Source: Candidatus Calescibacterium sp. (lineage in GTDB: Bacteria; Calescibacteriota; Calescibacteriia; Calescibacteriales; Calescibacteriaceae). From it: a DNA stretch of 64,000 nt. The number at the start of each line of letters is the position of its first letter. The stretch's first letter is position 1. Where the stretch lies: NCBI GenBank assembly GCA_032249135.1, contig JAVVGL010000006.1, positions 19,792 through 83,791 of the forward strand, given 5' to 3'. Positions 7,101 through 44,966 of this stretch are shown here, in pieces. The position numbers and the translations under genes were made by a program. A model generated the notes under the pieces. It saw only the letters and a program-made list of their open reading frames with translations, did not search any database and had not been told where the DNA came from.

Positions 7101-9119
7101 TTAGTTTTTTCTTTTTTCTCTCCTTTTTACTATCAGAAATATCAAATATAAGATCAGATTAAAGTATGTTCCGATTATGGAGAGTAAATTTACATTATAA
7201 GATGAGCAGGAGCATCCGAATTCACCGGATGCTCCGAATTTGTCCTGAGGTTTGTTTCCCAAGGTAGTTTCTGGATTTTGGACCTTGACAACCCAATTTC
7301 TTATCTCCTGAGAAATGCAATTAGATGCCCGAATAGAAAATCTGTAAATGCCTTCAGATGGAGGGGTTTTCCATATGATCTCTGCATATCCTTCATATGT
7401 GCTAATAGATTTTGCTTTTCCGCCATCGGAAAAATTAGCTCCATCGGGTTCTATTATTTCCAGAAAAATAGGAGGGGTGCCATTAATGTATATAGTTGCT
7501 TTATATTCACTTGATGGGGGTGCAAAATCATATTTTTCAGCATCCTTTATATTTGGGCTTCTCAGAACTACTTCTTGAGAGATTGGAGTTGCTCCCACAT
7601 TTATTCTATCAGGAAATTTCTCAAAAACAGCAATAATGACATCATGAGGCTTGCCTTCGTAGCCATAAGCCGCTGTTGCAGAATCTGGGAATACATCCCC
7701 TGATTTCCAGAAATCATTTGGTTGGCTTTCTAAACATTTTACAGATTCATTCTCTTTATTTATATCAATTTTTTCAAACCTCCAAACATCAGAATAAGTT
7801 CCTGTATTTTCATTATATTTGAAAGGCAAAACAACTTTCACTCCGTAATGCCTTGAACATGTAATAAAGTTTCCTTTGCTATCTTTTACTTCACCGCATG
7901 AATTTCCACATCCGGGGAAACATTCATAGACATTTACAGAGTTTGAACTAATACCGGAATTTACTATGTTTTCATCAATATGCCATATGAGGACTCCTTC
8001 GGAGGGAAAATCAGAATCAAATAGTTCTTTTTTTCTGAACTCAATAAGAAAATATTCGGTTTGAGAGGTTCCGCCATAAGCTGGAATTTTTAAAAAGAAT
8101 TGAGAGTTTGAGCTTGAAGAAATTGCATCACAGAAATCGTAAGTTACAAGTTTTGGAAAAGCCCAACCCAGATAAATTTTCTCCCACGGGGAAAGATTTG
8201 CCGGCAAAGTTCCAAAAGGAGTCCCTTTATACAAACCATATCCCATAAGGGAGTAAGGTCCGACACCACAAGATTGAATTCCGCCTTGTGAGTATCCGGC
8301 ATCGTATAGATCCGGTAGCCCGAGAAGATGACCAAACTCATGAGCCATAAGTCCCATATTGCCTTTTGGGAAAAACTGAGATATACCTGCTGCAATGACT
8401 CCGCCTTTTATAATTTTTCTCTCCTGCGTTGTAATATAAGTATAAAAAGCGTGAGACCAAATATCACAACACTTTGGATCATCATATGAATAAGGCAGAG
8501 TTTCAGCTCCTTGACCAGAATGTATAATAATGAAGCAGTCTACGATACCATCTGAATTTCCGTCAAATTTTGAGAAATCTATATCTTGGTCTGTGATTTG
8601 GACGAGCTCCCGCGCGAGATTTTGAGTCCCATTTCCCATACCACAATACCGAAAGCTTCCGTTTTTTGTTCCGCAAGCATAATCTGAAAGATTTGAGGAA
8701 ACCGTATAAGGTCCAAAAACTTCTCCGCTTATTTTTAATTTTCCTTGGGAGTTTATAAGCCAGAAATCTCTAAATGAAGGGAATTTGTAGATGGTGTTAG
8801 AAGTTATTGAGCCAACCATAAGCTCAGAAAAATATGATTTCGGGTCTGCGGAAACTCCGTATTTTGACAAATCAAATTTTTTATCTTGGAACTCTACTAA
8901 AATGATAGCACATCTGACATTACCCTCCCGTGGTGCTACTTGTTTTGGAGTTATGAAAGCCTCTGGAGATATTCTCATCAGAGATTTTGATGATTTGAAA
9001 CCAAGCCTTGTTGGCGTCCAAACTCCAGGGTATGGTGGAGCAGATAGAACATCAACTTGAAGCGATGGGAAAAATGATAATAATAAAAAAAGTGAAACCA
9101 TAAAGAAAAAAAGTAGCAT
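7101..9119 (-). CDS. Secreted M6-family (InhA-like) zinc metalloprotease with C-terminal membrane-anchor signal
   Basis: It has an N-terminal signal peptide and the signature HEFGHLLGLPDLYD (HExxH plus GLPDxY, typical of the M6 domain). A C-terminal Ig-like segment is followed by GEFGCSCSS, a TM helix and KRREKRKN. Confidence 0.8.
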   Translation of the reverse strand: MLLFFFMVSLFLLLSFFPSLQVDVLSAPPYPGVWTPTRLGFKSSKSLMRISPEAFITPKQVAPREGNVRCAIILVEFQDKKFDLSKYGVSADPKSYFSELMVGSITSNTIYKFPSFRDFWLINSQGKLKISGEVFGPYTVSSNLSDYACGTKNGSFRYCGMGNGTQNLARELVQITDQDIDFSKFDGNSDGIVDCFIIIHSGQGAETLPYSYDDPKCCDIWSHAFYTYITTQERKIIKGGVIAAGISQFFPKGNMGLMAHEFGHLLGLPDLYDAGYSQGGIQSCGVGPYSLMGYGLYKGTPFGTLPANLSPWEKIYLGWAFPKLVTYDFCDAISSSSNSQFFLKIPAYGGTSQTEYFLIEFRKKELFDSDFPSEGVLIWHIDENIVNSGISSNSVNVYECFPGCGNSCGEVKDSKGNFITCSRHYGVKVVLPFKYNENTGTYSDVWRFEKIDINKENESVKCLESQPNDFWKSGDVFPDSATAAYGYEGKPHDVIIAVFEKFPDRINVGATPISQEVVLRSPNIKDAEKYDFAPPSSEYKATIYINGTPPIFLEIIEPDGANFSDGGKAKSISTYEGYAEIIWKTPPSEGIYRFSIRASNCISQEIRNWVVKVQNPETTLGNKPQDKFGASGEFGCSCSSYNVNLLSIIGTYFNLILYLIFLIVKRREKRKN
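7104..7226 (-). other. C-terminal tripartite sorting-signal-like segment (GEFGCS motif, TM helix, polybasic tail)
   Basis: The translated tail is GEFGCSCSSYNVNLLSIIGTYFNLILYLIFLIVKRREKRKN*. The same architecture and Cys motif occur at the C-terminus of the 1982-aa protein. Confidence 0.6.
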
Positions 9120-25412: not shown

Positions 25413-27347
25413 GTGATGAAATTCTCCGGAAATACATCAAAAAGAAAGAGAGTTAATCTTATAATTTCCATATTTTTTTTACTTTTTTCGTTTTTTTCTT
25501 CTCATATTGCTCTTGCAGAGGAAAGAGTTTCTATGAACTTCAAAGATATTGACATATTAGACCTTGTTAGGCTTATTTCAGAATGGTCTGGAAAAAACTA
25601 TCTTCTTGACCAGAGAATAAGGGGAAAAGTTACGATAATTTCTCCGAGACCTGTTACAAAAAGGGAAGCGCTTGAGATATTCAATTCTATCCTTTATGCT
25701 AATGACCTTGCGCAGGTTGAAGTTGGAAATATCGTAAAAATAGTTCCTGCCGCTGAGGCTCGTCAAAGTCCAATAAAAACCGTAATAAAAGAGAAAAAAC
25801 TTCTACCATCAGAAGAGTATGTGACTTTGGTCTTAACTCCTCGTTTTGCAAATGCTGACCAAGTTGCAGGTGTTCTCAGAAATCTGCTTTCCCGTAATGC
25901 GTTTTTACAAACTTACATGCCTACAAACACAATAATACTCATAGAAACAAAAGCAAATATAGAAAGATTAATGCAGATATTAGATGAAATAGATGTTCCT
26001 CCACCTCTTACCACTGAAATGATAAAGCTCAAATACTCTATTGCGCAAGATGTCGTAAATATTTTAACTCAAATAATACCATCTATCCCCCGTGTTGCAG
26101 TATCACCTCAGCAGCAACCCAAAGTTATAGCTGAACCGAGAACTAACTCTATAATAATCGTAGCTCAACCCGATGATATAGAGTATCTCAAAAAAGTTAT
26201 AGAGAAGGTAGATGTTCAAGAGGAGAGAGGGGAGGTTAATGTTGTTTATCTCAAATATGCAAAAGCAGAGGAAGTTTCATCTATTTTACAAAATATAGTA
26301 GGTGGTGGGCTGAGACAGCAACCGGGACCTCAGGTCGTTCAGGCACCGGTGAGAATAGCCGCAGATAAATCTACGAACTCACTCATAATCATAGCTTCTC
26401 CACCAGACTTTGAAAAAATAAAAGATATAATAAATAAGATAGATGTAGAAAGAAGGCAGGTTTTTGTTTCCGCTGTTATTATGGAAATTTCTTCTTCAAG
26501 ACTTGCTCAATACGGTCTATCTTTTCTTGGTGGAAAAGATATATCAGTTAGAATGGAGGGGACAACAAAGAAAGGTATAGCTGTTTTAGGAGAATCCGTT
26601 GGAGCTCCTTTGCCTTTTCAGATAATAGATCCTACTAAGATAGCTAATATATCTGGACTTCTTTTCGGGTTTTCTTTACCGCCCGCGAGTGTTGAAGTTG
26701 GTGGGCAAACTATATCTTTACCTCCTCTTGCCGCTATCTTGAACGCTCTCGCAACTGATACACAAGTTGATATTCTTTCAACCCCTCATATACTTACGCT
26801 TGATAATAAAGAAGCAGAAATAAGGGTTGCTACAAATGTCCCGTTCCCAACAGGTCAAATAATAACTGCTGCTGGTCCAGGAGGCGCTGCTGTGCCAACT
26901 ATAACTATACAAAGACAGGATATAGGAATAATACTTAAAATTACCCCTCATGTTATAAAAGAGGAGAAAAAGCTTTCTCTTGATATATCAGTTGAGATTT
27001 CAGATGTCGCAGAAGAACCACCGCCGGGACTTGCAGTTCAGCAACTCGGTATAGCTACAATAAGGAGAACCTCAACAACTTCTATTTTAGTAGAAGATGG
27101 TCAGACAGCAGTTATTGGAGGTCTTATGAGAACAAGAACTTCTCTTTCAAGGGCAAAAGTTCCAATCTTAGGAGATATACCTGTCGTGGGTTTCCTTTTC
27201 AGATCATCTCAAAAAAGAGTTCAGAAATCTAATCTACTCATATTTATAACACCAAAAATAATATGGTCATCCAGTGAAATGGAGGATATAAAGTCAAGAA
27301 AAATTCAGGAAAATATCAAGATGAGAAAAGATGAAGGCATGTATTAA
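25413..27347 (+). CDS. gspD: Type II secretion system secretin (GspD family)
   Basis: It has a signal peptide and an N0 domain (VSMNFKDIDILDLVRLISEWSGKNYLLDQRIRGKVTI). Repeated secretin_N domains follow. The C-terminal secretin core contains VPILGDIPVVGFLFRS...NLLIFITPKII. Confidence 0.9.
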   Translation: MMKFSGNTSKRKRVNLIISIFFLLFSFFSSHIALAEERVSMNFKDIDILDLVRLISEWSGKNYLLDQRIRGKVTIISPRPVTKREALEIFNSILYANDLAQVEVGNIVKIVPAAEARQSPIKTVIKEKKLLPSEEYVTLVLTPRFANADQVAGVLRNLLSRNAFLQTYMPTNTIILIETKANIERLMQILDEIDVPPPLTTEMIKLKYSIAQDVVNILTQIIPSIPRVAVSPQQQPKVIAEPRTNSIIIVAQPDDIEYLKKVIEKVDVQEERGEVNVVYLKYAKAEEVSSILQNIVGGGLRQQPGPQVVQAPVRIAADKSTNSLIIIASPPDFEKIKDIINKIDVERRQVFVSAVIMEISSSRLAQYGLSFLGGKDISVRMEGTTKKGIAVLGESVGAPLPFQIIDPTKIANISGLLFGFSLPPASVEVGGQTISLPPLAAILNALATDTQVDILSTPHILTLDNKEAEIRVATNVPFPTGQIITAAGPGGAAVPTITIQRQDIGIILKITPHVIKEEKKLSLDISVEISDVAEEPPPGLAVQQLGIATIRRTSTTSILVEDGQTAVIGGLMRTRTSLSRAKVPILGDIPVVGFLFRSSQKRVQKSNLLIFITPKIIWSSSEMEDIKSRKIQENIKMRKDEGMY

Positions 27348-27353
27348 AAAAAG

Positions 27354-28079
27354 ATGGAAGAGCGGAGTAAACCCGGTACTTTTTTTCGGTTTTTGTTTTT
27401 GTCTTTGATTTTTTGGCTTCTTTCTTATTCTTTCTCTCTTTCATTTGCTGACGAAAAAAAATCTGTACTGCAAATTCTGGCTTCTGACATATCCTTTGAA
27501 TTCCAAAGAAAAAAGGAGGAGTTTCCAAAAATAATTGTTGGAACTACGGTAGCCTTAACCGCTGCCATACCATTATCTCTGGCTGATCAGTATGTAAGAA
27601 ACCTTGTTTTATCTTCTTATAATAAAACAAAATATGCAGGAGAAGTTATGAGTTTTTTAGGTGAAGGAATTTTTCTTGTTCCTTTCTCTTTTGCAGGTTA
27701 TATTTTTGGTTTGGTTTCAGATAACGAAAAAGTGAGGTTGGGGTTTATGAGAGCTATTTACAATTTGGCTTTTACTACCTTCATAGTTCAATCTCTGAAA
27801 TTTTCTGGAAGAGAGAGACCAGCTTGGGCAGAATACCAATATTCTTTTTCTCCTTTGAGATTTGAAGATAGATGGAGGTCATTTCCGTCAGGACACTCCC
27901 AAGCGAGCTCATCAGTCTATTTCACCGTAGCAAAAGATGTCTGTGAAAGCAAATTATGTTCTGCGGTGTTTTATTCTTTACCTTTTATTGTAGGTGCGGG
28001 AAGAATTCTTGTGAATGATCACTGGCTTTCTGATGTTGCTGGTGGTATAATAATAGGATTTTCATTTGAGGTTTTTTGA
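27354..28079 (+). CDS. PAP2-family (type 2) lipid phosphatase
   Basis: The three PAP2 motifs are present: KFSGRERP (KxxxxxxRP), PSGH and GRILVNDHWLSDV (SRxxxxxHxxxD-like). The protein is membrane-embedded. Confidence 0.8.
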   Translation: MEERSKPGTFFRFLFLSLIFWLLSYSFSLSFADEKKSVLQILASDISFEFQRKKEEFPKIIVGTTVALTAAIPLSLADQYVRNLVLSSYNKTKYAGEVMSFLGEGIFLVPFSFAGYIFGLVSDNEKVRLGFMRAIYNLAFTTFIVQSLKFSGRERPAWAEYQYSFSPLRFEDRWRSFPSGHSQASSSVYFTVAKDVCESKLCSAVFYSLPFIVGAGRILVNDHWLSDVAGGIIIGFSFEVF

Positions 28080-28142
28080 AGATACCCAGAGTTAATTTTT
28101 TTGAATTCTGGGGTTAGAATTACTGAATTGGTTTGAAAGACC

Positions 28143-29279
28143 ATGGGCGAGTTAGTAGATATATGTGTTGTTGGTGCCGGACCTGCTGGTCTTTCGTTTG
28201 CTTTGAGTTTTCCTGAAAAAAATAAAATTTTGGTTTTAGAAAAAGAATATTTCCCTCGTGATAAAGTTTGCGGTGGAGGACTTATACCAAAAGCAGTAAA
28301 ATTACTTTCTGAGCTCGGACTTGTCCCCGGCAAAGATTTTCCTGCAAAGAAAATAAAAAAGATTGTCTTCTCCTCTGATTTGGGTGAGAAAATTTTTGAT
28401 GTATCTGATAAGAATTTTATGGTAACAAAAAGATTAGATATGGATTTTGCACTTTTCAAAAAAGCAAAGCAATGCGGCGTCAAAATTGAAGAAGGAGTGA
28501 AATTTTTGGGATACTCAGAAAAAAACGGAAAAATTTTGGTTTCAACAACAAAAGGTTATGTTGAGTGCAAAAAACTTGTGATAGCTATGGGTTCTTACCT
28601 TAAAAGAGACTCCTACAAGGCTGTAAGGTGGTTTGAAAATCAGAATGTAGAAGATAAGATGTTGTTCTCTATTGAAAGTTTTGGAGATGAGTTTGTGTGG
28701 TTTTGGAAATTTGATGGCTACGGTTTTTCTGATATAGGCTTTATGTCCCTCAACAAAGACCTCCAAAAAATAAAAGAAAAGATGAAAAAAAAGGAAGAAA
28801 ATGAAAATAATAATAACAATAATAAAAGCCAAGTTGAGAACAAAAAAGAATTTTTTGTCATAAATAAGTTCAATCCAAAGACAAAATTCAAAAAAGGAAA
28901 TGTTTTTTTTATTGGAGATTCATACGGAGTAGATACTTTGACAGGGGAGGGAATTTCATCTGCCCTTCACCATGGAATAATGCTTTCTCGTGTTTTGCAA
29001 GGTGGTTCGGATTTGAATCCTTTTCTCTTTTTATCTTTTCGGTCTCTTTTTTATTTTTATAGCTCTTCTCTTTTCAGAAGGCTTTTGATCTTCTATTTTT
29101 TTTCAAACTTTTTTTATAGAAACGAGAAAACTTTGGATTTAGCGAAAAAAGTTTTGCTTTCTGATGAGTTTTCAAAATTTGTCAGTGGTTTGAAATTTGA
29201 AAGTGATGGAAAAATATCACAGGTACTGGACTTTTTGAAGATTGTAGCCAAAGTTTATTTCAAAAACTTATTGGTTTGA
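28143..29279 (+). CDS. FAD-dependent oxidoreductase, geranylgeranyl reductase-like
   Basis: It has an N-terminal dinucleotide fold (DICVVGAGPAGLSFAL), the KVCGGGL block and the GDSYGVDTLTGEGISSALHHG block typical of the GGR family. There is an N-rich insert (KKKEENENNNNNNKSQVENKKE) and an unusually hydrophobic F/S/L-rich C-terminal region. Confidence 0.65.
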   Translation: MGELVDICVVGAGPAGLSFALSFPEKNKILVLEKEYFPRDKVCGGGLIPKAVKLLSELGLVPGKDFPAKKIKKIVFSSDLGEKIFDVSDKNFMVTKRLDMDFALFKKAKQCGVKIEEGVKFLGYSEKNGKILVSTTKGYVECKKLVIAMGSYLKRDSYKAVRWFENQNVEDKMLFSIESFGDEFVWFWKFDGYGFSDIGFMSLNKDLQKIKEKMKKKEENENNNNNNKSQVENKKEFFVINKFNPKTKFKKGNVFFIGDSYGVDTLTGEGISSALHHGIMLSRVLQGGSDLNPFLFLSFRSLFYFYSSSLFRRLLIFYFFSNFFYRNEKTLDLAKKVLLSDEFSKFVSGLKFESDGKISQVLDFLKIVAKVYFKNLLV

Positions 29280-29282
29280 AAT

Positions 29283-30143
29283 TTGATTAAAATAAAATTG
29301 AGTGTAGAGGAGGGTAAAAAATTAAAAAATAAAAGTATGCAGACTTTCAAGGCTTTAATTTACTCTTTCAGATTCCCTCAGTTTTTCTTCTTTATTTCGG
29401 TTTTGATGATGGGATTTTTTTCAGGAGGAACAAAACAAATATATTCTATCACTATCATATTAAAGCTTACTTTTTGTGCGGTTTCAATTTTTTTTCTTTG
29501 GTGGGGGAACTCACTTATTAATGATCTTTACGACCTTGAAATAGACAAAATAACAAATAGATCAAGACCTTTGGTGAGAGGACTTGCAAGACCGGAGGAT
29601 TTCAAAAAATTCGGGTTTTTATTCCTTTTTTTATCTCCTATTCCAGCATTATTTGTTGATTTTTGGGTATTTCTTATAAGCCTTTTGTATGTTTTTTTAT
29701 CGATTCTGTATTCACCTTTGAGATGGGGAAAAAGTCCTTTTTCGTCTTTGTTTATAGCGTGTGGTTCATCTTTGGTTTTCTTGCAGGGGAGCTTGATTTC
29801 TGGGAAAATAGATTTGATATTTTCTCTTTTTCTTTTCTTATCTTTGTCTTTGGCTACTACATCAAAGGACTTAAAAGATTACGAGGGTGAGAAGGGCAAA
29901 GTTTTAAATGTCTTTACTTTTTTCGGGAGAGAGAAAGGCAAGGTTATAAATTTTTTCTTGAACTTTTTGGGTATTTTTGTTTGGGTATTTTTGGTTCCAA
30001 AACTTTTTTGGTTTTTAGTTTTTAGTTCTTTGATCCTATCTTTATTTTTCTTCTTCACAGAAAAACTAAAAATCCTTATGTTTCTTTATCTTCTTGTTCT
30101 ATCTTTTGTGTTCTTTTTTTATGTAAAACCTTATTATTATTGA
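29283..30143 (+). CDS. UbiA-superfamily prenyltransferase
   Basis: It is polytopic. The first Asp-rich motif is NDLYDLEIDKITNRSRPL and the second is SKDLKDYEGEKGKVLNVFTFFG. An alternative start is ATG 29337 (MQTFKAL...). Confidence 0.75.
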   Translation: MIKIKLSVEEGKKLKNKSMQTFKALIYSFRFPQFFFFISVLMMGFFSGGTKQIYSITIILKLTFCAVSIFFLWWGNSLINDLYDLEIDKITNRSRPLVRGLARPEDFKKFGFLFLFLSPIPALFVDFWVFLISLLYVFLSILYSPLRWGKSPFSSLFIACGSSLVFLQGSLISGKIDLIFSLFLFLSLSLATTSKDLKDYEGEKGKVLNVFTFFGREKGKVINFFLNFLGIFVWVFLVPKLFWFLVFSSLILSLFFFFTEKLKILMFLYLLVLSFVFFFYVKPYYY

Positions 30144-32809: not shown

Positions 32810-32878
32810 TAAAATCTTGTTTTTTCTTCCCAAAATGATTATTATATATAAAAATTGCTAAATTTTTTTGTAAAAGGT

Positions 32879-35800
32879 ATGACAGAACAAAAAAAATTGG
32901 GAGCAATTTTACTCAATATTTTCATCGTCTTATCTTTACCACTGATAATAAAAGGGGAAGAAATAAAAAGAGGAGACACTGATAACCAATATGAAACAAA
33001 AGGAGAGAACACCTATGACCAATATGACGAACAAAGAATAATGCGCGAATTAGAGCTTTTACCTATACTATCTCTTGAAAGAACAAGGAGAGAAACGGGA
33101 AGAGCGGGAAGAATGTATATTGGGTTTGCTGATGAAGTTTTCAGAGGTAGAATTATTCCGAAAGTTGTTCCAAAAACCGCAACGCTCGCAATTGATGGCA
33201 TAGGCTGCGGAATATCAACCGGAAATATCATCGGTCCTTCCTCAACTTGGGGTCAATCATTCCAAGCAAGGTGGGGATATGAAGTACTGAATGTTGGTTG
33301 TCCAAACGACGATGCCGGTTGGTGTGACGATAAAGACTGGCCAGCACCATCTGCTTGTGTTGATGCTAACAGAGATTATATTTGCGACTGCGGATGGGGC
33401 GGATGCGTTGGAGGTTGTGATGATATAAACGCTCCGGACTGTGGATATAGAGAAAGGTTAGGGGATATGACGGGAGAATTTGAAGGGCTTTTACAATATG
33501 TAGCCGAACGACTAAAAGAAGCTCTCGTTCAGCGAGATTTGAGAATACTTGTAAATAAATCTCTTTGTGGAAAAGGTAGTTGTGTAGATACACCGTGGCC
33601 ACTTGACCACCTCTGCCTCACAGTAAATCAAGACCCAACAGATAATGCTAATATCAGGGAGAGATGTTGGGCACCGAGTAAGCCTTTGGACCCCTGGGTT
33701 GTATACTACAACAAAACTTTTGTTGAGGTATTTCCAAATCCCGGTAAAGGAACAATTGATGTTATTTTACTTTTGTGGGCAGAAGGAGGTGTTCCAGGGG
33801 ACCCTCAAGGTATCCCTGTGAGTAATAGAAGTAATGGCAACACAAATCCATCAAGTGATGTTTGTGTTGAGTTGAGGTTGTGTGGAGATTCAAGTGGTGG
33901 TGGTGCTTTCTATGCCGATGCCATAGCTATAAAAGCCTCTCTTTATCTTGTGGTTCAAGATAACTTAGTAGATGTCTGTGTAAAAGATACTGAACTTGAT
34001 ATTATAAATTCTCATGTTTACCTTGAAGGTTGTGTTGCTGGGTGTTTCTGCGATGCCAATCCAGAAAGCCCGCCTTTGGGTAATCAGAGTTTATCGGATG
34101 AAGGATTAGAGGAGACACTTGGGGCCTCAATTGCTCCTGGAATTGATAATTTCCTTCACGGAAACTGCCCAGGTGATAGAGCCTTATCTTTGTGCCCAAA
34201 AGTTGCTTTCAGAGGTTGGGGTTACCGGGGACCCTGTGCCCCATCAATAGGGTGTAGTTTTGATGCAACAACTGGTGAGATGTCTTGTACTTGTCAGGTC
34301 TGCCCTGAAAATAATAGCTATGGACCTTGCCCCCCTGGTTCTGTGCAGTGCACTCACGGAATTTTTCCTATTGATTTAAATGAGCTTTTGGGAGGGAGAA
34401 GCTTTTCTGTTACGCAATATTGTGGGAGACCTCAACATTTTGCTGGTGAGAATGCCGCGCACCTTGACCCTCTCAAATGTTGGCCAGGACACTACAAAGC
34501 AGGCGACCCAACTCCACCTCCTCCTTTTAACAACCCTCTTACATGGTATGGGACTATGAGCTGTGGTAAGGGGATATATGATATTGGTTGTTATATGTCA
34601 AAACCTCCTATTTTGACTGGAACCGGTTGTTCTGCTCAGATTGATGCGGCAATAAGACCTCGTGATTTGTCTCAGTCTTGCTCTGAGATGAGTTTTGACG
34701 GCTATCCTGCATCTCCTACCTTTTCGGGGACATCTGGTTTTGTTGTAAGAGCCGCATTTGATGCTGATAACTACACGCCTGAACCTCTTCTTTTTCCTCA
34801 GTCGGTCCCAGCGGCTGGTACAAACTGCAATATTCAGGGAGATGGAGTAGATGATGACAATGGCTACTGTTCTGTTTCAATTCCTTTTACTTTTAATTTT
34901 TACTTTGGCTCATACACTTCTATGTGTATTTCTACTAATGGTTTTGTAAGATTTGGCGCGGCAGGTGCAGATTGTGGAGACGCAACTCCCGACCCCATCC
35001 CGTATACTAATACTCCTAATGCGTGGGCTGGACCGATGTGGGCAGACCTTTCCATAGAGAACGAGTATCTCTACTATGTCTCAGAAGTTGTTCCAGCAAC
35101 TTGGATAGATGCTTACTCTTGTAGAATCATGGGAGCTATGGATGTTGGGGCGAGCGCGGGCGACCCGTTAGATGATACATTAGTTGGAAATGTAAATTCT
35201 GCTTGCGCCGGCTCAAATATCTGTGGCGTCTCATCCCTTTGCAACGATGAACATTCTGAACCATCCTACACAACATACAACGACTGTTCATATAACCAAT
35301 CCATAGGATGGAGTTTTCCATTTTTTGGTTCAAATTTCTCAAATGTATGCATAAGTTCTAATGGTATAATATATTTTAGGAACGATGGAATATGTCCAGC
35401 AGGTGCTTTGAATATACCAACTTCACCAGCAGCCGGGGGACCTAACTACTCAATAGCAGTCGTATGGAAAGACCTTGACCCCCTCACAATGACCTCAGAT
35501 GAAGATTGCAGCGGGTGTGCAAGTTGTTCTTTTCTTTGCACCGGGCATGATAGGCACAGAGGGGAGTTTAATGGCTTTGGTTCGGTCTACAAGCATTACA
35601 TATCTGGCACATGCCCAACTTCCGGTGGTTCGTGTTCCGCTTTGGTTATAACATGGTATAGGGTTGTAGATTTTAATGTCCAACCAAATAATGCAGATAA
35701 CTGCTCTGATAATAACGATTCAAATGCAGATTGTACAAACTACGCAGCTGGAAGAGATTGGTGTGAAGTCAGGGAAGGAAGTAACCTCTATGACTGCGGT

Positions 35801-38800
35801 TGTAATCCAGATTGTGGCGCATATGGTGGTTGCAACGCCACAGACGACAGCAACTGTAGGAGAATTTGCAGGTGTTGTATTCAGGGTTGTCAGGATCAGG
35901 CGAGGGCTGGGCAACCGAATGAATGGGAAGCTTATAAGCGGCAGGTTCAAAACACAAACACATTTCAGGTCGTCTTGTGGCAAGATGGAACAATTGATAT
36001 AAATGTAAAGGAATTTACAGATACCGCCGGAAGCTGTAATGGAACAACGCCACGCGCTCGTATGTTTTTGAAACAAAATTCATCAAGATATATTGAGTTA
36101 AGCATAGCACCGAATAAGTCTTATAGAATCTTCCCCCTGGGTTATGCAAACACAGTTTGTGGTACCGGGCGAGTAATATATGGTTCTGGAACTTGCACAA
36201 GAACAACCGGTTCAGGAACTGCAAACTGTGTCAGAGTCAGATGGGAAAATGTCCATGTGAAAGGGCAAGGCATATGCATAACTATGGAGGCAAGAATTAT
36301 GCAAGATTACACGGGGACGGGAGCGGGAGCAGGTTCAAACTACGATATTGTGTTTTTCATGGAAAGATTTGAGGTTCCGATAGCTTCACTATCTCCGGAG
36401 CAAAGGAAACAGCTGGCAAGACTATCAGACTTTACAAGGAGCCCCGGTGTGGAAAACGCTGCCGGTGATGTGGGAGCTTATGCTTATATACCTCCTGATG
36501 GGAATGGTTTGGTTATGAGGTGGCAAGGTCCGTGGACATACTGGATTGGTGTGGGTATATCACAAGATTTGATGACTGACGCATCAAACATGCTATACTC
36601 TGGGGTGATGTGTCTTTCTGCAAATGTGGGCGGAGTTAATACTGCAGATACCCAAAAATACTACGATATTTTTACTACAATTTTACCGTTTAACTTATCA
36701 TCAGCCGATTCTGCAAAAACACTATTTCCATTTATCACGAATTATTGCGATCCGGATGGTCAGGTTGAGTTGAGGATGAAACCATCTGGTGTGACGCAAG
36801 CGAGCGCAAGAACAGGCTTGCAAATCCCATCTGTTTTAATTGCAGGCTCTACCCTTGATACATTCCCTTATGAGGGAGCGCTCGGAATTTCTGTTCCACA
36901 AACATGCACCGAGTGGGGGTTTTCACGATGTGCAGATGTCGTCTTCTCTTTCCCGAATTTCAAAGCGGAAATTTGGTGCCACAAAAACAACCTCCCAACC
37001 TTTGCGTGGATAAAAGACGGTATAACAGGTCCTCCAACCTATGTTTTGGGAATAACATCAGATTGGTTTATCGGAGCCGATATAGAATACGCTTACATAT
37101 CAACGGGAATTTCTATGCAGGCAAAATTGCAGGATGCGTCAGGAGGAAATGAATATGTCTATGTGAAAATAGCCGATGTCTCCTGTGCAATAGCTTCGGG
37201 AGATATACTTGAATATTGGATAAGGGTTGACCCAGCTACAAGACGCTGCGCCCTTGATGCATATTTCTCGGGGGGAGGCGTTCTGAGAAATGTACCAGGA
37301 CTTACCGACCAGAACGGAATACCTGCTCACCCTGATGGTAATTTGCAGACTTTCTGTCCTGACCCTAACTGCACAAAGACTGCACCAAACACAAGTTGTA
37401 GGTGCCCCGTACAAGATTGGTATAGGAGAAGAATATCGCTTTCTAGTTTTGCTGGGCAAACTTTGCAGGAGCTTGCAATAGGTGTTGAGGAAGATGCAAA
37501 CGGTGGATATTCTTGCCAAATAATGGGTATTAAGGTTTTAAATAGTTCCGGTGGAGTAAAATGCTCTTTTTCTGGTCTAAGAGATATGGGAATATGGGCT
37601 CGAGGAGGGATAAGCAGCATGCAACGATATTCTTACTCTGTTGCTGGGAACACCATAGGAGATATATTTATTTTTGCAGATGTGAAACCGAACCCAAGAC
37701 AGATTCAATCTTCTGTTTTGCTACCAAGTCAAATTATAGGAGGAATCGCAGACATTTTCGGAGATATTCTCTCTGGTTGGTTGCAAGGCAGAATAAGAAC
37801 AAAATTCAATATACCTTTGGAAATAAACATGCCTTTGCATTTTGTTTTCAAAAAAGTCAAACCACAAGGACCTGATATTCAAACAGATGAGACTAACTTT
37901 AACCCATGGCTAAGTTATGGTTATCCTCCCGGAAATATAGCTCCTGATTACTTGGTTATTTACATAGATAGATTTTTGGGGAATATAGATGTTGTATCTT
38001 TGATGATGGGTGGTCTTTCTTTGGCTCCACCCGCACCTTATCGTAGGTCTCAAGTTTCAACATCTGAACTTATATCTTTTGATATTCCAGAGTGTTCCGG
38101 GAAAGGTGAAAAATGCGTTCTGACTCCTGATGTTGCTAAAAAATATTTCACAAATTTTGGTCCAAATAATGTGAATTTGAGATTTGGAGGAGGTGTTATA
38201 AAATACTCGTGGAGGAAAAATGGGAGTATGTGGAAGCTTCCAAATTCTGCCGCACAAAGCACACTTGATATAGGTACCTTGCTTGAAGGACCAAACATAA
38301 TAGAGATAGCTCCAATATTAGATGATGGGTACTTTTACGATGAAAATCCAGTTATTTTGGCTATATATATGGATACCCAACCACCTTATGTTAGTTTGAG
38401 AGGAGGGAGGGAGCTTGAAACAGGTATTATGTATTTTTCCGGTGTTCCAGTGTTTGTTTTAGAATACTATGATATGAGCGGTGAGGTTTTCTGGTCTTAT
38501 AAGATAGATGATGGTGAGTGGTCAGAATGGATAAAAGGAGGAGTTGATAATAACGGTAGCGGAACAGGTAGAATAAAAGCAGATGTGAGCAAAGGCACAC
38601 ATGTTCTTTACCTGAAATTGAAAGATAAATGGGGTAATGAAACATCAATTTCTAAACCATTTTATTTCGCAAAGGAGGGAGTTTTTGGATGCTCATCGCT
38701 GAGCGAAGTTGAAGTCCAAGAGATTGTATGGAAGGGAATTTCTTTTGCTATTTTCTTCTTCCCAGTTTTAGTCGTAGTTCTTATGGTAAAAAGGAACGGT

Positions 38801-38827
38801 AAAAAAACGGTAAAAAGAAAGAAATGA
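32879..38827 (+). CDS. Giant Cys-rich secreted surface protein 1 (~1982 aa) with NIDO-like modules, two C-terminal Y_Y_Y/Ig-like domains and a Cys-motif/TM/polybasic C-terminal signal
   Basis: It is a single uninterrupted ORF. The signal peptide is MTEQKKLGAILLNIFIVLSLPLIIKGEE (the ORF track uses TTG 32855). I hand-counted about 84 Cys. Details are given in the findings. Confidence 0.85.
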   Translation: MTEQKKLGAILLNIFIVLSLPLIIKGEEIKRGDTDNQYETKGENTYDQYDEQRIMRELELLPILSLERTRRETGRAGRMYIGFADEVFRGRIIPKVVPKTATLAIDGIGCGISTGNIIGPSSTWGQSFQARWGYEVLNVGCPNDDAGWCDDKDWPAPSACVDANRDYICDCGWGGCVGGCDDINAPDCGYRERLGDMTGEFEGLLQYVAERLKEALVQRDLRILVNKSLCGKGSCVDTPWPLDHLCLTVNQDPTDNANIRERCWAPSKPLDPWVVYYNKTFVEVFPNPGKGTIDVILLLWAEGGVPGDPQGIPVSNRSNGNTNPSSDVCVELRLCGDSSGGGAFYADAIAIKASLYLVVQDNLVDVCVKDTELDIINSHVYLEGCVAGCFCDANPESPPLGNQSLSDEGLEETLGASIAPGIDNFLHGNCPGDRALSLCPKVAFRGWGYRGPCAPSIGCSFDATTGEMSCTCQVCPENNSYGPCPPGSVQCTHGIFPIDLNELLGGRSFSVTQYCGRPQHFAGENAAHLDPLKCWPGHYKAGDPTPPPPFNNPLTWYGTMSCGKGIYDIGCYMSKPPILTGTGCSAQIDAAIRPRDLSQSCSEMSFDGYPASPTFSGTSGFVVRAAFDADNYTPEPLLFPQSVPAAGTNCNIQGDGVDDDNGYCSVSIPFTFNFYFGSYTSMCISTNGFVRFGAAGADCGDATPDPIPYTNTPNAWAGPMWADLSIENEYLYYVSEVVPATWIDAYSCRIMGAMDVGASAGDPLDDTLVGNVNSACAGSNICGVSSLCNDEHSEPSYTTYNDCSYNQSIGWSFPFFGSNFSNVCISSNGIIYFRNDGICPAGALNIPTSPAAGGPNYSIAVVWKDLDPLTMTSDEDCSGCASCSFLCTGHDRHRGEFNGFGSVYKHYISGTCPTSGGSCSALVITWYRVVDFNVQPNNADNCSDNNDSNADCTNYAAGRDWCEVREGSNLYDCGCNPDCGAYGGCNATDDSNCRRICRCCIQGCQDQARAGQPNEWEAYKRQVQNTNTFQVVLWQDGTIDINVKEFTDTAGSCNGTTPRARMFLKQNSSRYIELSIAPNKSYRIFPLGYANTVCGTGRVIYGSGTCTRTTGSGTANCVRVRWENVHVKGQGICITMEARIMQDYTGTGAGAGSNYDIVFFMERFEVPIASLSPEQRKQLARLSDFTRSPGVENAAGDVGAYAYIPPDGNGLVMRWQGPWTYWIGVGISQDLMTDASNMLYSGVMCLSANVGGVNTADTQKYYDIFTTILPFNLSSADSAKTLFPFITNYCDPDGQVELRMKPSGVTQASARTGLQIPSVLIAGSTLDTFPYEGALGISVPQTCTEWGFSRCADVVFSFPNFKAEIWCHKNNLPTFAWIKDGITGPPTYVLGITSDWFIGADIEYAYISTGISMQAKLQDASGGNEYVYVKIADVSCAIASGDILEYWIRVDPATRRCALDAYFSGGGVLRNVPGLTDQNGIPAHPDGNLQTFCPDPNCTKTAPNTSCRCPVQDWYRRRISLSSFAGQTLQELAIGVEEDANGGYSCQIMGIKVLNSSGGVKCSFSGLRDMGIWARGGISSMQRYSYSVAGNTIGDIFIFADVKPNPRQIQSSVLLPSQIIGGIADIFGDILSGWLQGRIRTKFNIPLEINMPLHFVFKKVKPQGPDIQTDETNFNPWLSYGYPPGNIAPDYLVIYIDRFLGNIDVVSLMMGGLSLAPPAPYRRSQVSTSELISFDIPECSGKGEKCVLTPDVAKKYFTNFGPNNVNLRFGGGVIKYSWRKNGSMWKLPNSAAQSTLDIGTLLEGPNIIEIAPILDDGYFYDENPVILAIYMDTQPPYVSLRGGRELETGIMYFSGVPVFVLEYYDMSGEVFWSYKIDDGEWSEWIKGGVDNNGSGTGRIKADVSKGTHVLYLKLKDKWGNETSISKPFYFAKEGVFGCSSLSEVEVQEIVWKGISFAIFFFPVLVVVLMVKRNGKKTVKRKK
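38678..38824 (+). other. C-terminal tripartite sorting-signal-like segment (GVFGCS motif, TM helix, polybasic tail)
   Basis: The tail reads GVFGCSSLSEVEVQEIVWKGISFAIFFFPVLVVVLMVKRNGKKTVKRKK*. The Cys codon is at 38690-38692. Confidence 0.6.
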
Positions 38828-38882: not shown

Positions 38883-40169
38883 ATGATTTTCGGTTTAGTC
38901 TTTACCGCAAGTCTTATAAGGGGAATATTAGAAATACTACTTCTGACAAAAATAAGAGATATTCGGGAAATTTTTCCTTTTTTGTCTTTTTGGATTATTT
39001 GGTATTTTGTAGTCTTTTATACTGCATCAGCTATCATAAGCTTTTTTGCAAAAGAAAAGCTTGAAGATGTCATGAAGTTCATTTCAAAGTTTTTCTTTTT
39101 GATTATTTTGCCACCTATTGTAGATAGATTTTTGTTTGGAAGAACACAGCCTTATTTTTATGAAAAACCAGAAGATATTCTGAAACATTTTTTCTCTTTT
39201 TTCCTCACAACAGAAAGAGTAGGTAAGGCTTTGGTTTTGAATGTTCTTTTCATTCATTTTTTTGTCTTTTTGTACACTTTTTTTGTTGTCTTCAAAAAAG
39301 AGAGGGTTTTCTCAAATTTTTCAAGGGCGTTCCTCAAAGCGTTCGCAAGAGCTCTTTTATGTTTCATCTCACTTTATACTGCTTCAAGTTTTTACGCGGT
39401 AGGAGGGTTTTTACCCGTAATTTTCCCTCTTGTTCCTATACTACCCTCGGTAGCTATACCATTTTATAATTCTGTTCATGGTTTTTTCTTTTCTGTTTTA
39501 CTTTTTTTTCTGTTTTTTATAACACAAGCTGAAAAGTTGAAATTAGCCAAAACAAATCTAAAAAACTTTCTTTCTTTTCTTCATAGTTTTGGGTTTAATG
39601 CAAAATATATCATACCTTTTTTGAGCGGATACATATTTTCTGGTTTTGGGATTTGGTATTTACCTACATTTTTTTATGTAGGTATTTCTGTTTTGTTTTT
39701 TGATGGCTTCAAAAGGGGCTCACAAATTTTTTTCCCTATTTTAGCAATAGCTTTATTTTCGCCTTACATCCTTGTTTCTTTCCTTATTTTAGTTTTGCTT
39801 CGCTACATCAGAGAGTTTTTTATTAAGGAGTTGGAGAGTGAGGATTTGGGGGAGCGTTTTTGGAACTTGAGCTTGGTTGTTTCGTTTTTCATGGGTTATG
39901 CGGCAGGAAAAATATATATTTTCTTCATTATAGATTTATTCCTTACTTTGTTTTTTTTATGTTTAGCTTTATTTTTGAATAATTTATATCTTTCTTTTTT
40001 GGGTTTTGTTCCGTTTTTGATTTTAGGAAAACCAGAATTTATTTTCCTATCTTTTGTTGGATATATAGTTTGTGTTTTATCTCAAAGGTACTGGAAATAT
40101 GCAGTTTTGGCTAGTGTAGCTTTGATTTACTTTGTTCTGAAAAATTTAGAGTTTTGGTTTGGATTGTAA
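38883..40169 (+). CDS. Uncharacterised polytopic membrane protein (428 aa)
   Basis: It has at least 10 predicted hydrophobic helices and is F/L/I-rich. It lies 55 nt downstream of giant gene 1 on the same strand. I recognised no family motif. Confidence 0.7.
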   Translation: MIFGLVFTASLIRGILEILLLTKIRDIREIFPFLSFWIIWYFVVFYTASAIISFFAKEKLEDVMKFISKFFFLIILPPIVDRFLFGRTQPYFYEKPEDILKHFFSFFLTTERVGKALVLNVLFIHFFVFLYTFFVVFKKERVFSNFSRAFLKAFARALLCFISLYTASSFYAVGGFLPVIFPLVPILPSVAIPFYNSVHGFFFSVLLFFLFFITQAEKLKLAKTNLKNFLSFLHSFGFNAKYIIPFLSGYIFSGFGIWYLPTFFYVGISVLFFDGFKRGSQIFFPILAIALFSPYILVSFLILVLLRYIREFFIKELESEDLGERFWNLSLVVSFFMGYAAGKIYIFFIIDLFLTLFFLCLALFLNNLYLSFLGFVPFLILGKPEFIFLSFVGYIVCVLSQRYWKYAVLASVALIYFVLKNLEFWFGL

Positions 40170-42635: not shown

Positions 42636-42755
42636 TTATGTAAAAATTTTAGTTCTAAAATTTATTTTTGTTATTACTTTTTTTCTTTTTATATTTTTGA
42701 TTAAGCCGAGATTTATTTTTTTATTTTTTTGTTTGTTTTTTGTTTGTTTTTTGTT

Positions 42756-43436
42756 ATGAATTTTGTTTTATATGAGTCAGCGATTTGTGTTTTGATTTCA
42801 GCTTTCGGTCTTGCTTCAACAAGGTTCAAGTTTTTGGAGCTCAAACACTATGTTTTTATTGTTTTTATATCTGCTCTTTTGGTTCTTACAAGATACTTTT
42901 TCTCAAAACAAGAGAGCAGAATAAGGCTTTTGTCTCTTCCATCATCTCTTTTGCTGATTTTTCTTTCTTTGCCATCTCCGAAGCTTTTTTTAATTTCATT
43001 TGTTGCGCTTTACATTTTTTCAATTGAGATATTTTCTCCTTTTGAGTTTGGAAAAAAAATTCCTTTCTTGATAAAACCTGTTATTTTTGTAGTTTTTTAT
43101 TTTTTGGGGTTTTACTATGTTGCAAATCCATTTTCTTTTGCAACTTATGATGCTCTTTATTATGCTCTTTTGATTGCAATTTTCGGCTTATTTTTTTCAC
43201 TATCACAAAAACATTTTGCTTTCGGATTCCCGGCAGTTTTGACTTTTCCCATCTTCCACTCATCTTTACCTGTTATAGCACTATCTGGACTTACTCTTTT
43301 ATCTTTATTTTTTATGAGAAAAGAGAAAAAGAACTTTTTGCCCTCTGTTTTATCTTTGTTTTTTCTCGTCTTTTTTATCTTGTACCTTTATGATGCACAA
43401 AGTATGCTCCCAGCAGGAGCTATATATATTTTTTAA
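42756..43436 (+). CDS. Uncharacterised polytopic membrane protein (~226 aa)
   Basis: It has about 7 hydrophobic helices and lies immediately upstream of the tandem Lgt-like genes on the same strand. The start is uncertain (ATG 42756, or TTG 42729 in the ORF track). Confidence 0.6.
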   Translation: MNFVLYESAICVLISAFGLASTRFKFLELKHYVFIVFISALLVLTRYFFSKQESRIRLLSLPSSLLLIFLSLPSPKLFLISFVALYIFSIEIFSPFEFGKKIPFLIKPVIFVVFYFLGFYYVANPFSFATYDALYYALLIAIFGLFFSLSQKHFAFGFPAVLTFPIFHSSLPVIALSGLTLLSLFFMRKEKKNFLPSVLSLFFLVFFILYLYDAQSMLPAGAIYIF

Positions 43437-43482: not shown

Positions 43483-44193
43483 ATGTTGCCGCTTATACAT
43501 TTGGGGTATGGAATATACATTCCTATATATCCTATTGCAACTGCTATTTCAATATCTTTGGTAGCTTACCTTATTTTAAGGGAGGATGATAGATTTGCAG
43601 TTGAACTTGGGTTCTTTATTGTGTCTTTTATTTTATCTTCAAGAATTTTTTTGGGAAAGAAAATTCTGAATTTTTGGGAGAGCGGATATTCTCTCATGAC
43701 GGGGGTAAGTATATCTTTCCCCCTCACACTTATTTTTCTTCTTATAAGAAAAAAAGATTTTTTATATTTTTTTGACCTGTGCTCAAAATATGCTCCGGTG
43801 GGACTTGCCACACACAGAATATTCGGATGTTTCCTTGCAGGATGCTGTTGGGGAGTTCCAAGCTCTTTTGGTCTTGTGCCTCATCCTTGGTCACTTGCAT
43901 TCAAATATACTGGATACCAAAAACTTTTCCCAGTCCAGATTTTTGAAGGTTTGTGGTGGGTGATTTCTTTTTTCCTTGTGAATAAATCAAAAGACAAAAC
44001 ATTAACTTTTCTCCTTTGCCTTTTTATATCAAGACTATTTGAATATCTGAGGGGAGATATTGACCTTTTTTTCTACATAGGTAGAATAAAAGTTTCATTT
44101 TATCAGATTTTGGCAGCTTTTTTACTCTTATCTACCGCAGCAGTAAAATTTTTATTGAGTAAGAGAAAAGAAAAAAATAAAGGGAAAAATTAA
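43483..44193 (+). CDS. Prolipoprotein diacylglyceryl transferase (Lgt)-family paralog 1, divergent
   Basis: It is polytopic. WESGYS (compare W-x-G-G of Lgt), HRIFGCFLAGCCWGVPS (compare GR-x-GCF-x-NGCC-x-G of many Lgt) and FEYLRGD (compare the F-x-R-x-D C-terminal block) are present. At 236 aa it is shorter than typical Lgt. Confidence 0.6.
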   Translation: MLPLIHLGYGIYIPIYPIATAISISLVAYLILREDDRFAVELGFFIVSFILSSRIFLGKKILNFWESGYSLMTGVSISFPLTLIFLLIRKKDFLYFFDLCSKYAPVGLATHRIFGCFLAGCCWGVPSSFGLVPHPWSLAFKYTGYQKLFPVQIFEGLWWVISFFLVNKSKDKTLTFLLCLFISRLFEYLRGDIDLFFYIGRIKVSFYQILAAFLLLSTAAVKFLLSKRKEKNKGKN

Positions 44194-44210: not shown

Positions 44211-44966
44211 ATGTTTCCTGTTTTGTTTCAAGTTGAAAACTTCAAATTTTATACTTCGTTTCTCACTTTACCTTTGGTATCTTTGGTTTTCATTATTTTT
44301 AGCTGGAAAAGACTGAAAGAAATAGGATATAAAGATACTGAGATAGGTCAAATTATGATTTTGATATTTGTTTCGTGGGCTGTTTTCTCACGCTTATATC
44401 TTATAGGTAAAATACCTTTCTTGCAACTTATTTCTGTTTGGGAAGGGGGACACTCTATGATACTGGGAATAATTGGACCGATGATTATAACGCTTGTATA
44501 TTTGCTTTTGAGAAAGAAAACAATTTCTGATTTTTTTGATGCTATGGTACCTACCATAGCTTTATCGTTGGCTCTGTATAGAATTTTTGTTTGTTTTCTT
44601 GTGGGTTGTTGTTTTGGTAAGCCTTTCAGGTTTGGTTTGGTGTTTCACGAAAATTCGGCTGCCTATCTTTATTTTGGTTCAAAGCCCATTCACATCACAC
44701 AAATTTATGAGGCTTTCTTTATGGGATTAACTTTCTTTTTACTTGAGAAAATCAAATTCAAAGAAAAGGGAGATAAAACCTTGTTTTTTCTTTTCATGCT
44801 ATCTTTAATGAGGCTTGTAGTAGATAATTTCAGAGGAGATATAAAAGAGTTTATGATAAAGTTTGAGATTTTTGAGTTGCAGGGAATAACTTTATGGCAG
44901 GTCTTATCTATTTTTCTTTTTTTGTGCGGGGTTTTTTGGTTAAGAGTTCTCAAGATAAGAACATAA
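44211..44966 (+). CDS. Prolipoprotein diacylglyceryl transferase (Lgt)-family paralog 2, divergent
   Basis: VWEGGHSMILGIIG, YRIFVCFLVGCCFGKPFRFGLVF and VDNFRGD are present. It is collinear with paralog 1 over its whole length. Confidence 0.65.
   Translation: MFPVLFQVENFKFYTSFLTLPLVSLVFIIFSWKRLKEIGYKDTEIGQIMILIFVSWAVFSRLYLIGKIPFLQLISVWEGGHSMILGIIGPMIITLVYLLLRKKTISDFFDAMVPTIALSLALYRIFVCFLVGCCFGKPFRFGLVFHENSAAYLYFGSKPIHITQIYEAFFMGLTFFLLEKIKFKEKGDKTLFFLFMLSLMRLVVDNFRGDIKEFMIKFEIFELQGITLWQVLSIFLFLCGVFWLRVLKIRT

Follow-up and report, generated by a model that had tools for sequence, protein, structure and literature searches.

The gene at positions 7101..9119 (minus strand) of a 64,000-nt stretch of DNA from Candidatus Calescibacterium sp. 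encodes a secreted zinc metalloprotease of the M6 (InhA-like) type, 672 amino acids (aa) in length. The whole stretch is referred to below as the window (G+C content about 35%), and the 2.1-Mb genome holding it as G000. The last 41 residues of the protease probably constitute a tripartite cysteine-type C-terminal sorting signal that is MYXO-CTERM-like in action. Tails of the same type were found on approximately 15 open reading frames (ORFs) of G000. Since these unrelated surface proteins share it, the tail most likely represents not a new kind of system but a variant, specific to this lineage, of the cysteine-type signal known to anchor proteins at the surface of myxobacteria.

The tail of the M6 protease and its conservation

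Translation of positions 7101-7226 (minus strand) yields GEFGCSCSSYNVNLLSIIGTYFNLILYLIFLIVKRREKRKN, which is the C-terminus of the protease; the stop codon occupies positions 7101-7103. The tail has three parts. The signature G635-C636-S637-C638 (7206..7217, minus strand) contains two cysteines, as described in the initial annotation. It is followed by a hydrophobic stretch L645-V664, LLSIIGTYFNLILYLIFLIV (7128..7187, minus strand), the candidate transmembrane helix, and by the presumably cytoplasmic basic end KRREKRKN (7104..7127, minus strand). In the AlphaFold2 (AF2) model of the protein, based on 15 sequences (mean predicted local distance difference test score, pLDDT, 69), the signature lies in a low-confidence linker at approximately residues 620-648 (pLDDT <50), and the cysteine motif is located 7-9 residues ahead of the terminal helix (residues 645-671).

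The GTDB phylum of the host consists of seven genomes from three genera. An ortholog of the protease was found in six of them, the five other copies being 52-77% identical to the G000 one. The protein database contains a further relative with 78% identity, labelled by NCBI as Candidatus Calescibacterium sp. No close ortholog was found in the species-level genome collection, where the best match is 35% identical. In the alignment of the six phylum orthologs, the only invariant residues of the last 60 columns are one glycine and the motif G-C-x-C; the helix and the basic end keep their character, not their sequence. The motif is retained in all 13 orthologs obtained from the phylum search and the protein database, metagenomic ones included, down to an identity of 33%, where the C-terminus reads ..SEGCACSVTHPFLLALLMWRMFRRSN. 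The comparison of orthologs had been proposed in the initial annotation as a check of the tag, and the loss of the cysteine motif that would have spoken against it was not observed.

In other phyla, distant M6 proteins whose catalytic domains are 30-37% identical to that of the protease have a type A sorting domain of the type IX secretion system (T9SS) at the C-terminus instead. The respective model TIGR04183 matches two of the three distant tails tested (30.7 and 25.2 bits, cut-off 23), and PF18962 is recorded on many M6 relatives in the database. Thus the same passenger carries differing sorting elements in different phyla, as would be expected of a portable tag. Another group of M6 relatives (P0014-P0016, about 31% identity) has a conserved Y-C-L followed by approximately 50 residues, a helix and KKR; the cysteine of Y-C-L aligns to the second cysteine of G-C-x-C.

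One alternative is that the tail is a plain unprocessed anchor. The protease would then stay in the inner membrane facing the periplasm, and the cysteines would serve in a disulfide, in a metal site or in S-acylation without cleavage. Indeed, a helix with a basic end is sufficient as a stop-transfer anchor, and the passenger domains are rich in cysteine, so that the motif cysteines could form disulfides. However, G-C alone in the tail has stayed invariant across deep divergence and is not needed by a plain anchor. Moreover, the AF2 model places the motif outside the folded domains, in a disordered linker. This explanation seems unlikely, and two further sets of data bearing on it, the distribution of the motif among passengers and the properties of the candidate enzyme, are given below.

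The rest of the protein agrees with its assignment to the M6 metalloproteases in the initial annotation. The ORF scores above the curated cut-off of TIGR03296 (167 bits, E = 8.4e-49, cut-off 110.8) and above that of PF05547 (84 bits, E = 1.3e-23, cut-off 22). A candidate Sec-type signal peptide occupies approximately residues 1-26 (9042..9119, minus strand), the putative cleavage site falling between ..DVLS and APPYPG; the sequence SAPP[YF]PG follows the hydrophobic N-terminus in all M6 orthologs. The catalytic domain, as delimited by the TIGR03296 match, covers residues 73-380 (7980..8903, minus strand). Its zinc site HEFGH (residues 260-264, positions 8328-8342, minus strand) is an intact HEXXH motif, conserved together with the surrounding HEFGHLLGLPDLYD in all six phylum orthologs. 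In the AF2 model a signal helix is placed at residues 2-15 and the catalytic domain at approximately residues 60-390, with pLDDT for the domain mostly 80-95. A C-terminal beta-sandwich domain resembling immunoglobulin (Ig) folds is predicted for residues 495-613 (7281..7637, minus strand) from the AF2 strands only (pLDDT 84-94); a Pfam scan assigned no family to these residues. A scan for promoters and terminators around the gene produced no more sites than are found in shuffled sequence.

Occurrence of the tag on unrelated proteins

The initial annotation compared the protease with a giant protein of 1990 aa encoded in the same window (32855..38827, plus strand), whose C-terminus is ...EGVFGCSSLSEVEVQEIVWKGISFAIFFFPVLVVVLMVKRNGKKTVKRKK. 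Its tag (38678..38827, plus strand) is of the same type and consists of ..GVFGCSS, a spacer of 19 residues, a transmembrane helix and KRNGKKTVKRKK. The passenger parts of the two proteins are unrelated (best BLASTP E = 4.9). The tails align with 34% identity over 44 aa in pairwise BLASTP (E = 0.003 for this single comparison). On the other hand, with a hidden Markov model built from the non-M6 tags the tail of the G000 protease scores 9.3 bits, whereas the top-scoring one among 12,311 reversed decoys reaches 14.4 bits, and therefore the similarity of the M6 and giant tails cannot be claimed from the residues themselves. Profile scores are ill suited to tails whose spacers vary and whose helices are of low complexity, and for this reason an enrichment test based on features was used.

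Among the 966 ORFs of G000 with at least 300 aa, 13 have a lone C-terminal transmembrane helix with a basic end and no other transmembrane segment. The dipeptide GC precedes the helix by at most about 22 residues in eight of these, and in another two its place is taken by S-C or K-C. The background frequency of GC is 1.48% of 20-aa windows, and the enrichment is highly significant (binomial P = 2.8e-12). In the control set of 38 polytopic proteins with similar ends, the dipeptide occurs once. The resemblance of the tails is thus beyond chance by shared architecture. As regards the likeness of the protease and giant tails suggested in the initial annotation, its architectural part stands and its residue-level part is weak. 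The explanation that this resemblance arose by chance between two low-complexity membrane anchors draws on the latter, that is, on the score below the best decoy and on the pairwise E-value. It is contradicted by the enrichment, by the retention of G-C-x-C in 13 orthologs and by the recurrence of tags on orthologous cargo in all seven genomes of the phylum. A chance resemblance is very improbable, and it was rejected on the enrichment and the conservation of the motif in orthologs.

The proteome-wide census proposed in the initial annotation yielded approximately 15 tagged ORFs from about ten unrelated passenger families, as grouped by all-against-all BLASTP with the tails removed. The common architecture is G-C-[S/A/G], a short spacer, a transmembrane helix and a cluster of lysines and arginines. 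The tagged passengers include the M6 protease, a second protease that is an S8 subtilase (PF00082, E = 4.5e-34), a PKD/FG-GAP protein, an RCC1/MopE/fn3/TIG protein, proteins with Ig-like domains, giant proteins, and several proteins without any family. A profile constructed from the tails of the other six phylum genomes finds nine G000 tails above the best decoy; in these six genomes themselves the tag profile has from three to nine matches each (E up to 0.01). Thus the view of the tail as a portable cassette on unrelated passengers was borne out. A plain anchor does not account for G-C preceding the helix by a short, fixed distance in about ten unrelated passenger families.

The features of the tag were derived from 40 phylum tags, in all of which the cysteine is present by construction. 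The residue preceding the cysteine is glycine in 36 tags, and several tags have GGG ahead of it. Position +1 is occupied by serine in 29 tags, and position +2 by cysteine in 15 and by serine in another 15. The cysteine is located at a median distance of 33 residues from the C-terminus, and the spacer between it and the helix core has 0-17 residues (median 7.5). The helices are rich in isoleucine, phenylalanine and tyrosine. They are followed by at least three lysines or arginines (median 4), the totals being 104 lysines and 90 arginines. The existence of the tag, its portability and its conservation are established by these data, as is the presence of candidate machinery described below.

Three further observations concern the tagged proteins and their neighbours. 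A 1343-aa protein (45821-49852, plus strand) has its last Ig-like domains in common with the giant and ends directly after the cysteine motif (..GIFSCSQ); no helix or basic part is encoded downstream of it in any frame. The gene directly 3' of the giant gene (38883-40169, plus strand) encodes a polytopic membrane protein of 428 aa, for which no Pfam or NCBIfam match was found. Finally, a pair of paralogs in G000 (contigs C10:3-1613 and C8:66015-67616, both cut by contig ends) has a proline-rich spacer and a variant motif EEGIGCYSVPP followed by a helix and a basic end.

Candidate processing, lipidation and export machinery

Each of the seven phylum genomes encodes exactly one PF02517 protein (58-74 bits, cut-off 22.4). 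The orthologs are 209-233 aa long, and the motifs EExxxR, FxxxH and HxxxN are intact in all of them. In G000 the sole gene of this CPBP/Rce1-like family (233 aa, PF02517) is located outside the window, at contig C19:35042-35743, and has 7 bases in common with the end of carA. The top seven NCBIfam matches of its product are all models of the myxosortase (Mrt) family: MrtP with 105 bits, Mrt_core with 93, MrtC with 86, MrtX with 75, MrtS with 59.6, MrtJ with 54.1 and MrtZ with 51. On Mrt_core (NF040914) it scores 93-95.5 bits in hmmscan and six-frame search. Over 41 genomes the Mrt_core scores fall into two groups, 82-119 bits versus at most 44 bits. The upper group is formed by four genomes from other phyla (104-119 bits), the genomes of this phylum (88-99 bits) and one genome with 82.5 bits; the ordinary CPBP proteins of the 29 other genomes make up the lower group. 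These similarities make the CPBP protein of the phylum the candidate myxosortase-like handler of the tag.

The tag and the Mrt-like CPBP are both present in all seven genomes of the phylum, a co-occurrence that argues against a plain anchor. Outside the phylum, matches of the tag profile on large ORFs (E up to 0.01) were obtained in the genome G007 only. Its CPBP protein has the best score on Mrt_core (118.9 bits), and its Lgt-family ORFs number about six. One of its proteins, L130 (contig C1:582-680), is a homolog from another phylum of a G000 cargo on contig C11, has no family match and ends with EEGCGCAESPSSSYPVLFAFFVFIIRSLWKKKN, a tail of the pattern EEGCGC..TM..KKKN, where TM denotes the transmembrane helix. 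Inspection by eye covered the Mrt-positive genomes and identified, in G026 and G030, tails with GGGGCS, GGGCV or SAFGCA, a helix and RRR; one tail of this type sits on a homolog of another Calescibacterium cargo.

Another possibility is that the tail is a true sorting signal with a different handler, namely the single rhomboid protein, or an Lgt paralog together with an activity resembling signal peptidase II. There is one rhomboid protein in each genome of the phylum, GGG precedes the cysteine in several tags, and divergent Lgt paralogs adjoin tagged giant genes. However, the G000 rhomboid has no match to the rhombosortase model TIGR03902, its only match being GlpG (17.8 bits), and rhomboids occur in 14 of 14 control genomes as well. 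The M6 tag has no Gly-Gly. Nothing over the cut-off of the exosortase/archaeosortase family PF09721 was found in the seven phylum genomes. Besides, an invariant cysteine marks the class of tags handled by Mrt proteins (bioRxiv 10.1101/2023.06.07.544157). A handler other than the CPBP protein is therefore a rather improbable solution.

The window contains a candidate export component, the type II secretion system (T2SS) secretin GspD (25413..27347, plus strand). It scores 473.7 bits on TIGR02517 (cut-off 351) and has the Pfam domains Secretin, Secretin_N and GspD N0. By analogy, GspD is the presumed outer-membrane exit for the tagged proteins. A GspE/PilB-type ATPase is also encoded in the window.

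Two divergent Lgt-family genes are situated in tandem between two giant genes (43483..44193 and 44211..44966, plus strand). They match PF01790 with E = 9.7e-15 and 1.4e-22, both being far below the cut-off of the equivalog model TIGR00544. No family match was found for the ORF ahead of them (42729-43436). The canonical Lgt of G000 is encoded on another contig (C5), and throughout the phylum a canonical Lgt (about 160 bits) is accompanied in each genome by one or two divergent paralogs (53-80 bits). In the 34 genomes from other phyla there is a weak trend: at least two Lgt ORFs occur in three of the five Mrt-positive genomes versus four or five of the 29 Mrt-negative ones. It is conceivable, although doubtful, that the divergent paralogs lipidate the cysteine of cysteine-type signals. 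In that case the M6 protease would be a mirror image of a lipoprotein, with an Lgt paralog acting at Cys636/Cys638, the Mrt-like CPBP protein trimming the tail and the T2SS exporting the product.

The genes directly 3' of gspD (27354-30143, plus strand) encode a PAP2 phosphatase, an FAD-dependent oxidoreductase and a UbiA-family prenyltransferase. The substrates of eukaryotic and archaeal Rce1 proteases are prenylated cysteines, and thus it is conceivable by analogy that the lipid on the tag cysteine is a prenyl instead of an acyl group.

The following route may be proposed for the sorting signal handled by the CPBP protein. The protease would be exported by the Sec system owing to its N-terminal signal peptide, as suggested by its sequence. 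It would be retained in the inner membrane by the C-terminal helix, the basic end facing the cytoplasm according to the positive-inside rule. The motif cysteine may be lipidated by some enzyme, by analogy only. The single myxosortase-like CPBP/Rce1 glutamic intramembrane protease would remove the helix, as homology and co-occurrence suggest. Finally, again by analogy, the T2SS may transport the protease, folded and lipid-anchored, to the cell surface. There the M6 protease and the S8 subtilase with the same tag would digest proteins for a peptide-feeding thermophile.

Several points weigh against this interpretation. When residues alone are considered, the similarity of the M6 tail to the other tags is not significant. 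The phylum CPBP proteins score 87.9-98.6 bits on Mrt_core, just under its cut-off of 100 bits, so that the NCBI pipeline would not call the G000 protein a myxosortase. The MYXO-CTERM model TIGR03901 (cut-off 20 bits) has no match to the tails alone in hmmscan with E up to 10, and at the same threshold no match was found for any other NCBIfam CTERM model. Independent co-occurrence of the tag and Mrt outside the phylum is limited to very few genomes. The CPBP gene adjoins no cargo, Lgt or T2SS gene, and cleavage, lipidation and T2SS export of the tagged proteins are inferred. The lack of linkage between the CPBP gene and the cargo genes and the inferred status of the processing both favour a plain anchor.

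Relation to known systems and biological meaning

Cysteine-type tags are each paired with a glutamic intramembrane protease of the CPBP/Rce1 type from the myxosortase family (Haft 2023, bioRxiv 10.1101/2023.06.07.544157). For MrtX, cleavage of MYXO-CTERM depends on the cysteine, and the T2SS is needed for surface display (Guo, Haft and Wall 2025, PMC11980579; bioRxiv 10.1101/2023.06.07.544157). Lipidation of the MYXO-CTERM cysteine has been proposed, the enzyme not being identified (PMC11980579).

The Calescibacterium tag resembles MYXO-CTERM in its three-part tail and in the invariant cysteine, often accompanied by a second one (GCGC in MYXO-CTERM; GCSC, GCAC or CGC here). Other common features are the presence of the signal on numerous unrelated secreted proteins of a genome, including proteases, a cognate CPBP/Rce1-type protease whose best matches are Mrt models, and the presence of a T2SS secretin. 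However, the hosts of MYXO-CTERM and MrtX, MrtC and MrtP are Myxococcota and Bradymonadales, whereas the tag considered here occurs in a deep-branching thermophile phylum. The cysteine is usually followed by serine here and by glycine there; the tag has a spacer of 0-17 residues between the cysteine and the helix core. Its helix is rich in Ile, Phe and Tyr and its basic end has about as many lysines as arginines, whereas the end of MYXO-CTERM is Arg-rich. The enzyme is short (209-233 aa) and has 88-99 bits on Mrt_core. Since the window has a G+C content of only about 35%, much of the difference may be compositional, but the two systems genuinely differ in the serine after the cysteine and in the spacer ahead of the helix. 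In six-frame searches TIGR03901 had no match in G000 (E up to 10) and in G001, G004 and G006 (E up to 1). As the tails are not matched by TIGR03901 and the enzyme stays just below the Mrt_core cut-off, the tail is not filed as MYXO-CTERM proper; its formal membership was ruled out by the failure of TIGR03901 on all tails.

The pairs Synerg-CTERM/MrtS, JDVT-CTERM/MrtJ and CGP-CTERM/MrtA are similar in that each combines a lineage-restricted tripartite cysteine tag with a dedicated CPBP protein, and they are the best precedent for the Calescibacterium tag as their sibling. Synerg-CTERM has, in addition, a Ser/Gly-rich motif ending in cysteine and is linked to the T2SS. The tails were not matched by TIGR04564, NF033191 and TIGR04288. 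The tag lacks the DP motif of JDVT-CTERM, the invariant proline within the helix of Synerg-CTERM and the C-G-P of CGP-CTERM, and the enzyme scores lower on MrtS and MrtJ than on MrtP, MrtC and MrtX. The tag is read here as a sibling comparable to Synerg-CTERM or JDVT-CTERM, that is, a lineage-specific cysteine-type tag with its own Mrt subtype.

The initial annotation invoked GlyGly-CTERM. This system, exemplified by the Vibrio serine protease VesB, shares with the present one the protease cargo, the tripartite tail and retention at the surface after T2SS export. However, it combines Gly-Gly with a rhomboid serine protease, in contrast to the cysteine signature observed here. The logic of the analogy was right, but the closest system is MYXO-CTERM and myxosortase, as the CPBP protein matches Mrt models and the rhomboid is not a rhombosortase. 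GlyGly-CTERM/rhombosortase was ruled out, as the M6 tag has no GG and the lone rhomboid is generic. The T9SS sorting domain (TIGR04183) of Bacteroidota and related phyla also delivers an M6 passenger to the surface by means of a C-terminal element. However, it is a folded beta-sandwich of approximately 70-100 aa without a cysteine motif or a helix, and the Calescibacterium protease has no TIGR04183 domain. The pairs PEP-CTERM/exosortase and PGF-CTERM/archaeosortase were ruled out by the absence of PF09721 matches above the cut-off in the seven genomes and of PEP or PGF motifs in the tails.

To our knowledge, Calescibacterota are a deep-branching phylum of hot springs for which metagenomes are the only source. 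The present reading places the myxosortase route of surface anchoring, demonstrated for MrtX in 2025, in this phylum. The present NCBIfam models fail to recognize the tag, and the enzyme falls short of them by a few bits. This justifies a dedicated model of the tag and, for Mrt, a cut-off that is lower or specific to the subtype. With one CPBP protein, one canonical Lgt and one or two divergent paralogs, the small genome offers a compact setting for identifying the enzyme that lipidates the cysteine, a step left open in the published model (PMC11980579). Calescamantes (Calescibacterium) live in streamer communities at about 80 °C and have been described as heterotrophic, possessing proteases, peptidases and transporters for peptides (PMC4791363). 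M6 and S8 proteases anchored at the surface match such a peptide-using lifestyle. In each genome, the annotation of about 15 large proteins can be changed to surface-anchored; two of them are proteases that probably feed this peptide-using organism.

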